DNA from: Chloroflexota bacterium
GTDB lineage: Bacteria; Chloroflexota; UBA11872; VXOZ01
Reading direction: 5' to 3'
Assembly (NCBI GenBank): GCA_965221905.1
Contig: OZ244922.1
Span: 960,001-1,024,000 of the forward strand
Length of the DNA: 64,000 nucleotides
Below the pieces are notes generated by a model. That model was not told where the DNA came from, did no database searches, and saw only the letters and a list, made by a program, of their open reading frames with translations. Below are positions 51,444 to 52,778 of this stretch, in pieces (position 1 is the first letter of the stretch; every line of letters begins with the position of its first letter). The translations under genes and the position numbers were made by a program.

Positions 51444-51515
51444 ACTTGGTTTCCCTAAGGGGGTGTAGGTCAGTATCCTTACATCCTTCGACAGGCTCAG
51501 AAACTGTCTTGGGTG

Positions 51516-52451
51516 TCAAGGTGCGGTGGTTGGTTTCCAGGGCGACTGTGTATTGAGCATGCGGTTGAGGATGGTGAGCAGCTTGCGCATGCAGGCGGTA
51601 AGGGCCACTTTCTTGGGTTTGCCTGCGGCGCACAGTCGGTCATAGAAGATTTTGATCACCGGATTGAAGCGGGTTGCGACCAAGGTAGCCATGTAGAGAC
51701 TGGCGCGCACCGGGGCTCTGCCGCCCCAGACGCTGCGCTTGCCCCGGTAGGTGCCGCTATCCCGGTTGTGGGGAGCGACCCCCACCAGCGCGGCAATCTG
51801 CTTGCGATTGAGCCTGCCCAGTTCCGGGAGTTCTGCCAGCAAGCAGGTAGCCGTAACCGGGCCAATTCCCGGTACGCTGGACAGCAGGTTCTCACGGGCA
51901 CGCCACAGCGGGCTGGTTTGGACGAGCGCCGCCAGTTCCTGGTCCAGGCTATCGAGTTGCCGCCGCAGCCAGGCAATGTGGGACTTGATCTGGGGACGAA
52001 CCCGCTTGGTGGCCCGGGGCAGACGGTTGCACTCGGCAGTCAGCATCGCGACCACCTGCCGCCGCCGCGCTACCAAGCCCCGCAACTCCTGCGTCTGCGC
52101 GTCCGGCAGTGCGCGCGCCTCCGGTTGCACCGCTTCTCCAAAGCGCGCCAGCATGCCTGCATCTATCGCGTCCGTCTTCGCCAACCGTCCCGTGGCGCGC
52201 GCAAAGTCCCGCACCTGCCGCGGGTTCACGACCGTCACCTCCAGCCCCGCTGCCACTAACTCTCCTGCCACCGCGCTCTCCAGCCCACCCGTCGCTTCCA
52301 ACACCACGCCCTGCGGCGCCAATGCAAGCAGACGCTCCCGCAGCTCCTCTATCCCTGCCGCATCGTTCCCAACCCACCACGACTGCGCTTCGTCAGCTAC
52401 TCCCACGTCAAGCCGGTCTTGCGATACATCGATCCCCACGTACACTGCCAT
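51516..52451 (-). CDS. IS110 family recombinase/transposase (DEDD RuvC-like plus Tnp domain)
   Basis: VGIDVS, VLEATGG, KTDAIDA, SVPGIG and [16 protein letters not shown]. Confidence 0.97.
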
Positions 52452-52480
52452 TGCCTCCCTCCTGCTATACTATGGCTGGC

Positions 52481-52636
52481 GCTCCCATGCAGTCCCTGCC
52501 TTACGGATACGGACTTCGTGTCCCGGTAACTGTTCGGGCTCTGGGGGAGCTCGGCAGGTGTGGCGACCACTCTGAGCCACGGTCTGCCAGACCTAGGACG
52601 AACCGGTCTGCCACGCCTGCTCCCATTCTATCTCCC
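52481..52636 (-). ncRNA. Predicted IS110 bridge RNA (5' end approximate)
   Basis: Two stem/internal-loop modules; guides GTTCGTCCT (52603-52595) and GGCTCAG (52578-52572) match the target; ACAGTT (52533-52528) and GTAAG (52504-52500) match the donor junction. Confidence 0.88.
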
Positions 52637-52778
52637 TTTTCCAAGATATAAGGACGAACGGATAAAGACTGTTTCGACGGAGTATTCGTTCTTCCGTTTG
52701 TGATGAGCACTTCGACAAGCTCAGCGCAGGCTTGACGAACCATGAACGGCGATTGCCCTAGAGCTTCCCACATGCGTT

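Follow-up and report, generated by a model that had tools for sequence, protein, structure and literature searches.

One complete insertion sequence of the IS110 family, its CT cores included, occupies positions 51499-52652 on the minus strand of the window (the whole stretch of 64,000 nucleotides that was analysed). The interior of 1150 bp (51501-52650) lies between two CT cores, and the coordinates proposed for the element in the first-pass annotation proved exact for the interior and for both cores. The main parts of the element and of its insertion site are as follows:

51391-51415, minus strand: 25-bp REP-like target without an insertion, about 85 bp away from the occupied copy
51499-51500, minus strand: core CT on the right end (RE) side (AG on the plus strand), placed by the boundaries common to six copies and by the uninterrupted target copy nearby
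51501-52650, minus strand: element interior, 1150 bp, from six 1151-bp matches in the own genome
51516-52451, minus strand: recombinase gene, 311 aa, with a DEDD RuvC-like domain and a Tnp domain with a conserved SG (Pfam, solved structures)
52454-52462, minus strand: Shine-Dalgarno-like GGAGGGAGG, 2 nt upstream of the ATG, as read in the sequence
52651-52652, minus strand: core CT on the left end (LE) side (AG on the plus strand), placed by the boundaries common to six copies

The genome (3.52 Mb, one contig) holds six matches to the 1151-base element query, five of which are identical and one of which carries a single SNP over the 1151 bp. Each of the six is inserted in the same 25-bp REP-like target and has CT on either side; in the orientation of the element, the flank before it is CCGTTCG(T/C)C-CT and the flank after it is CT-GAGCCTGTCGAAGG. 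This shared target and the shared CT flanks therefore define an interior of 1150 bp with a CT core on each side. Insertion is site-specific at the short core, with no duplication beyond the core and no long terminal inverted repeats, and 61 exact copies of the 14-base target motif GTTCGYCCTGAGCC are unoccupied in the genome. The target is a REP-like palindromic repeat family centred on CCGTTCGYC-CT-GAGCCTGTCGAAGG, present in the window at 51385-51500 and 52653-52700 and throughout the genome, where 79 sites fit the 25-base degenerate target pattern and 61 the 14-base pattern. Two copies of the repeat lie no more than 110 bp apart at the insertion site in the window, one occupied and one empty. 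A single contig of 1169 letters in run X1 spans the whole element (51485-52653) at a word depth of 546, against 61-63 in the flanking contigs, which fits a multi-copy repeat, depth not being equal to copy number.

The product of the recombinase gene matches PF01548 (E 2.7e-21, 76.4 bits against a cut-off of 29) and PF02371 (E 1.7e-19, 70.4 bits against a cut-off of 21.3), and with both families matched the element is assigned to the IS110 family, IS110 group, as an IS621-like member. The nearest solved structures are the transposases of ISCro4 (9t56, E 1.6e-44) and IS621 (8wt6, E 2.4e-42), with which the GIDVS, LEATG and TDAIDA segments and the SG of the recombinase align. The conserved serine of the SG is presumably the catalytic one (PMC11208160). 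One contig of an RNA library (run X17, record 11) runs along the recombinase frame from 51853 to 51565 and then continues with 82 letters unlike the window; the break at 51565 could mean that the contig is chimeric or that it comes from a variant copy whose C-terminus or right end differs.

Between the end of LE and the ATG of the recombinase lie 199 nt with four guide-like segments, in which the following features are placed:

52481-52637, minus strand: predicted bridge RNA, its start and end deduced from the fold, guide matches and alignment with relatives
52499-52506, minus strand: probable right donor guide, in which GTAAG pairs with the core and the TAT of the LE terminus with one G-T wobble
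52526-52533, minus strand: left donor guide ACAGTTAC, six bases of which (ACAGTT) match the RE terminus (guide matches)
52572-52578, minus strand: right target guide GGCTCAG, complementary to the core and the right target half (guide matches)
52595-52603, minus strand: left target guide GTTCGTCCT, in the same sense as the left target half and the core (guide matches)

The predicted RNA would start about 6-8 nt after the -10 hexamer described below and would end with the second stem-loop, and it has no 5' stem-loop. The assignment of 52499-52506 as the right donor guide is probable, this segment aligning with ATACAAG of the Acidobacteriaceae relatives. In a single-sequence fold the guides fall in internal loops of two stem-loops, with an energy z of only -1.46. 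One genome per species was scanned, giving 43 related loci of 34-99% identity (here L followed by a number), and the guides were compared in 12 elements, the one in the window and 11 relatives. The left guide equals the element's own left flank in all 12 (the guides being GTTCGCCCT in L008, ATTCCCCT in L009, CATCCT in L010, GTGCCT in L011, TCATCCT in the Acidobacteriaceae and TCATTCT in L037). For the right guide, nine of the 12 show a match at the aligned position; the exceptions are L015 with one mismatch, L021, which matches elsewhere, and L037, whose flank is cut by the contig end. Guides that pair with target and donor and that covary with the targets of the relatives support the reading of the LE region as a bridge RNA. 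The published consensus bridge RNA carries a 5' stem-loop (PMC11208160, used in excerpt, as are the other papers cited here); this stem-loop is absent in the element of the window, in L008 and in L009, and present in the other eight of the 11 aligned left ends. When these 11 left ends were folded jointly with RNAalifold, the 5' stem-loop seen in the relatives and the stems of the donor loop emerged but those of the target loop did not, and the guide-target matches were therefore relied on instead.

Both termini of the element carry half of a promoter-like sequence, together with the arms of a short inverted repeat:

51507-51512, plus strand: inverted-repeat arm TCTTGG at RE, within chance
51514-51519, minus strand: -35 half TTGACA, 13 nt 5' of the RE core, containing the TGA stop at 51516-51518 (junction script, conservation)
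52641-52646, plus strand: inverted-repeat arm CCAAGA at LE, within chance
52643-52648, minus strand: -10 half TATCTT (4/6), interior positions 3-8, 2 nt after the LE core (junction script)

The first-pass annotation had placed TTGACA at 51519-51514 of the minus strand, overlapping the TGA stop of the recombinase (51518-51516), and this is what the sequence reads directly. RE reaches only 15 nt beyond the stop codon, and the -35 hexamer consequently contains it. The -10 hexamer overlaps the right donor half and one arm of the inverted repeat. Promoter-like sites were scored by the number of positions matched to TTGACA and TATAAT. When RE, CT and LE were joined by a slicing script, TTGACA was followed by a 17-nt spacer and TATCTT, a site of 10/12 that faces LE and the recombinase; the earlier proposal that the joined ends give this arrangement, pointing to the bridge RNA and the recombinase, is thereby borne out. 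The same proposal spoke of a consensus promoter, which is correct for the -35 but too strong for the whole, since TATCTT matches only 4/6 of TATAAT.

The junction site is the only one of at least 9/12 on either strand of the whole circular form, and no site of at least 9/12 is present in the integrated stretch 51300-52900 (0.4 being expected from shuffles). With half a promoter at each end, a complete one would form only upon closure of the circle. The claim that circularisation alone assembles the promoter is correct for five of the six integrated copies, in which the flank offers at the -35 position no more than 1-2 of 6 matches, but not for the copy at genome position 2938481 (best flank hexamers at the -35 spacing in the six copies: 2, 1, 2, 2, 2 and 4 of 6). 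At that copy the flank reads TTTTCA (4/6), which with a spacer of 18 makes a weak site of 8/12. Inside LE, a -10-like TAGAAT (5/6) is found at 52625-52630 on the minus strand, its -35 partner being only 3/6; it could be a weak internal promoter, and a transcript from it would have its 5' end within the first stem of the bridge RNA.

Over the whole genome, sites of at least 10/12 number 283 against 169-190 in first-order Markov simulations, and sites of at least 11/12 number 52 against 7-11. This excess of promoter-like sites over the simulations, a matter of hexamer enrichment only, suggests that the Chloroflexota host uses a sigma70-type promoter.

The conservation of this arrangement was followed in the 36 of the 43 related loci in which both ends were located by pattern; L017, L024, L028, L040, L045, L047 and L049 were left out, being cut short or not fitting the patterns. 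In 35 of the 36 loci a hexamer with at least 5/6 of TTGACA stands 13-14 nt before the RE core: TTGACA itself in 30 and TTGACT, TTGAAA or TTGACC in five. The remaining one (L009) has CACAAA there. The pattern by which RE was found did not include the TTGACA hexamer. The spacer measures 17 nt in 29 loci and 18 nt in seven. At the -10 position 32 of the 36 loci lack the final T (TATCTC, TATCTG, TATCTA or TATGTC), the T being present in four; the LE-finding pattern required TAT, so that the constancy of the TAT in the -10 follows from the search itself. Nor are the 36 loci independent of one another: most belong to a single Acidobacteriaceae family, for which the ends were fixed independently as the points where the copies stop aligning. 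Counted by deep lineages, the promoter geometry is found in four of five (Chloroflexota, L010, L011 and Acidobacteriaceae) and not in L009.

The position of the -35 hexamer relative to the gene differs between lineages. The TGA stop lies inside it in the element of the window, L007, L008 and L010, and within the compact lineage the hexamer is inside or astride the coding end, with a codon before the stop that is CCT or ACT, always ending in T, and with C-terminal residues that differ; in the Acidobacteriaceae elements it lies about 130 nt past the stop. Being kept in coding and in non-coding contexts, the hexamer is not conserved through a coding constraint. One relative, L007, has a 99%-identical recombinase and the same ends in another Chloroflexota genome. 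In L009, a Burkholderiales MAG locus of 56% identity, the guides match, the -35 is absent (CACAAA; RE at 1642-1655) and the TAG stop falls inside the left donor half; this element may rely on another promoter, like ISPpu9. The anatomy of the element, its copy number and boundaries, the guide matches, and the promoter geometry with its conservation are all direct observations.

It may be asked whether two hexamers have simply met by coincidence. The short inverted repeat CCAAGA/TCTTGG, noted earlier as bracketing the donor, is indeed present but is on its own not beyond chance, since a repeat of at least 6 bp occurs in 9.4% of random pairs of genome 25-mers, and only its inner AGA...TCT is kept by the relatives. 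This chance level, the weak -10 (4/6) and the post hoc nature of the search are all in favour of coincidence. Random joins of genome 30-mers, however, gave a straddling site of at least 10/12 in only 0.046% of 200,000 cases (4.6e-4), and the recurrence of the geometry in four of the five deep lineages brings this explanation close to refutation, so that we consider it hardly credible.

A more substantial objection concerns the function of the conserved bases. The spacer and the -10 of the junction site are at the same time the donor halves read by the guides, and their conservation may for this reason owe nothing to RNA polymerase. The insertion sequence could then be a genuine IS110 element whose conserved ends serve recombination, as donor site and recombinase contacts, and not transcription, the RNA and the recombinase being made by read-through or from a weak internal promoter as in ISPpu9. 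The poor -10 of most relatives is in agreement with such a role, and so are two published cases: ISPpu9 forms circles with no hybrid promoter, so not every IS110 element makes one (PMC12288879), and the excision of IS621 runs on read-through transcription (PMC13626964). At the locus itself, the -10-like TAGAAT of LE with its 3/6 partner and a same-strand open frame (52779-53702) just upstream of the window copy point in the same direction. Stop-to-stop frames are found on both strands upstream of most copies, which favours neither side on read-through from upstream genes. Against this, TTGACA lies 13-18 nt from the core, beyond the 6-9 nt matched by the guides, and a 22-bp IS621 donor without the -35 still recombined once the RNA was supplied in trans (PMC11208160), so that the -35 region is not needed for recombination in IS621. 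An exact consensus hexamer, at promoter spacing and in both coding and non-coding contexts, is hard to explain without transcription, and a purely recombinational role of the ends is in our opinion clearly unlikely.

Public sequencing runs were searched for the circular and excised forms. Over 51350-52800 the assembled contigs of four runs, two of them RNA, contain neither a joint between 51501 and 52650 nor a precise empty site (51500 to 52653), contigs being prone to drop rare forms; in the joints that were listed (51415-52710, 51504-52707 and others) the two sides are separated by unrelated letters, and these joints fit other loci flanked by REP sequences. The RE-CT-LE junction built by slicing has no copy in the genome assembly and the 30 terminal RE bases have no match in metagenome contigs, neither of which can show rare forms. 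The contigs of the two RNA runs cover parts of the recombinase frame at a depth of 2-5, in libraries that can hold DNA, and have nothing over 52428-52672. Because contigs drop rare forms, absences of this kind count neither for nor against circles or expression. They likewise add little weight to the idea that the copies are fixed relics of an immobile element and the promoter halves mere leftovers. That idea appears very unlikely to us in view of the five identical copies and the sixth with its single SNP, the open frame, the intact domains, the agreement of guides and target, and L007, where a 99%-identical recombinase lies between the same ends. The earlier description of the element as intact and probably active agrees with the open frame, the near-identity of the copies and the 61 unoccupied targets.

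Taken together, these results lead us to favour, with a probability of about 80%, an intact and recently active IS621-like element with a bridge RNA in LE and a promoter that would be split when the element is integrated and rejoined in the circle. Circle formation, promoter activity and the transcription start are what we infer here from the sequence. In the integrated state the -35 at RE is fused to the recombinase stop and the -10 lies 2 nt inside LE; the two halves are separated by the 1.1 kb element in the wrong order, and thus no sigma70-type promoter faces the element. Rare excision at both CT cores would close the element into a circle, setting TTGACA 17 nt upstream of TATCTT, and the housekeeping RNA polymerase could then produce one transcript carrying both the bridge RNA, of about 155 nt, and the recombinase. 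The target loop of the RNA would pair with the REP-like target around GTTCGYC-CT-GAGCC and its donor loop with the junction itself, the recombinase would insert the circle, and this insertion would split the promoter once more.

The first-pass annotation treated it as established that circle junctions of IS110 elements create such promoters, and the excerpts of three sources agree on this (PMC11208160, PMC13626964, PMC12288879). Closure of IS621 into a circle re-creates a sigma70-like promoter that spans RE-LE and initiates a bridge RNA of about 177 nt (PMC11208160), and the junction promoter of IS621 is described a second time with excision by weak read-through, after which this promoter boosts expression (PMC13626964). 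The element of the window is like IS621 and ISCro4 in having both Pfam domains, the CT core, a REP-type target, an LE bridge RNA with target and donor loops, and a -35 in RE and a -10 in LE that are joined only in the circle. It differs from them by its Chloroflexota host, by its size of only 1150 bp plus core, by an RE of 15 nt past the stop codon with the stop in the -35, and, against the published consensus, by a bridge RNA without the 5' stem-loop; it is, moreover, known from sequence alone.

ISPpu10 of P. putida KT2440 likewise inserts in REP sequences, has CT at both ends and forms a circle, and there the strong hybrid promoter, with a -35 from RE and a -10 from LE, stands beside a weak native promoter (PMC12288879). 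Promoter and circle were demonstrated experimentally for ISPpu10, and the likeness to the present element is one of description and not of direct sequence comparison. ISPpu9, also of P. putida and likewise of the IS110 family, targets REP sequences and forms circles; it has its own promoter and no junction promoter (PMC12288879), whereas the element described here has no internal site of at least 9/12. A junction promoter, Pjunc, is mentioned for ISEc11 and IS492 (PMC12288879), so that the concept is shared within the IS110/IS1111 family. In the IS1111 group the RNA lies downstream of tnp (PMC12288879), an arrangement that is impossible here because RE is 15 nt.

Two further features lie on the strand opposite to the bridge RNA:

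52463-52471, plus strand: extended -10-like TGCTATACT, antisense, 3 nt before the sX15-like match, its bases kept by L008
52474-52629, plus strand: sub-threshold match to Rfam sX15 (RF02234), opposite the bridge RNA and covering both guide loops, 43.9 bits

The sX15 match remains below the gathering score of 55 (E 2e-5), and ten related loci gave no sX15 match at E 0.01. On the 5' side of the recombinase Shine-Dalgarno, and on the other strand, TGCTATACT adjoins it and is kept in L008 (82% identity). Antisense small RNAs named Asr9 and Asr10 are described just upstream of tnp (PMC12288879); at the corresponding place, where Asr10 of ISPpu10 starts, the present element has only the sub-threshold Rfam match and the -10-like motif, and TGCTATACT could drive an antisense RNA of the Asr9/Asr10 type. 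The sX15 RNA itself is a northern-verified primary transcript of the Xanthomonas plasmid pXCV183 (PMC3300014), where it lies opposite a 24-codon frame beginning MNGIGIDV, similar to an IS110-type start. The plasmid pXCV183 has no PF01548 match, and the 98-aa frame neighbouring sX15 has no Pfam family; the orientation of sX15 is therefore read from the MNGIGIDV frame and from the donor-guide motif ACAGTT, which runs in the reverse direction relative to the sX15 model. The other plasmid matches to sX15 are the same relic. From the loci compared, 52474-52629 (plus strand) of the window and L050 1879-2037, the sX15 family seems to represent the opposite strand of an IS110 bridge RNA, which we offer as a lead; the excerpt of PMC3300014 makes no mention of a bridge-RNA link.

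A more speculative extension, rather unlikely as a whole, would make the element a minimal bridge-recombinase system with two layers of self-control, promoter occlusion at the junction and an antisense RNA of the sX15/Asr type. The first layer would follow from the donor left half and core being in the spacer and the right half in the -10, such that the recombinase and bridge RNA, on binding the circle junction, would shut off their own promoter. In the second, TGCTATACT, which adjoins the start codon of the recombinase, would give an antisense RNA that overlaps the two guide loops and silences integrated copies. If this were true, Rfam sX15 would be identified as the reverse strand of an IS110 bridge RNA.

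The mechanism favoured here, a promoter split on integration and rejoined in the circle, is not new, being established for relatives, and the element is a new and unusually compact example of it. The split-promoter logic of IS621-type elements would thus also hold in a Chloroflexota genome and in relatives from Planctomycetota and Acidobacteriaceae, with a geometry that is fixed across them, the -35 lying 13-14 nt before the core and the -10 2 nt after it. A bridge system as compact as this one, with a 311-aa recombinase, no 5' stem-loop and the stop codon inside the -35, may also be of interest in the search for small programmable recombinases.
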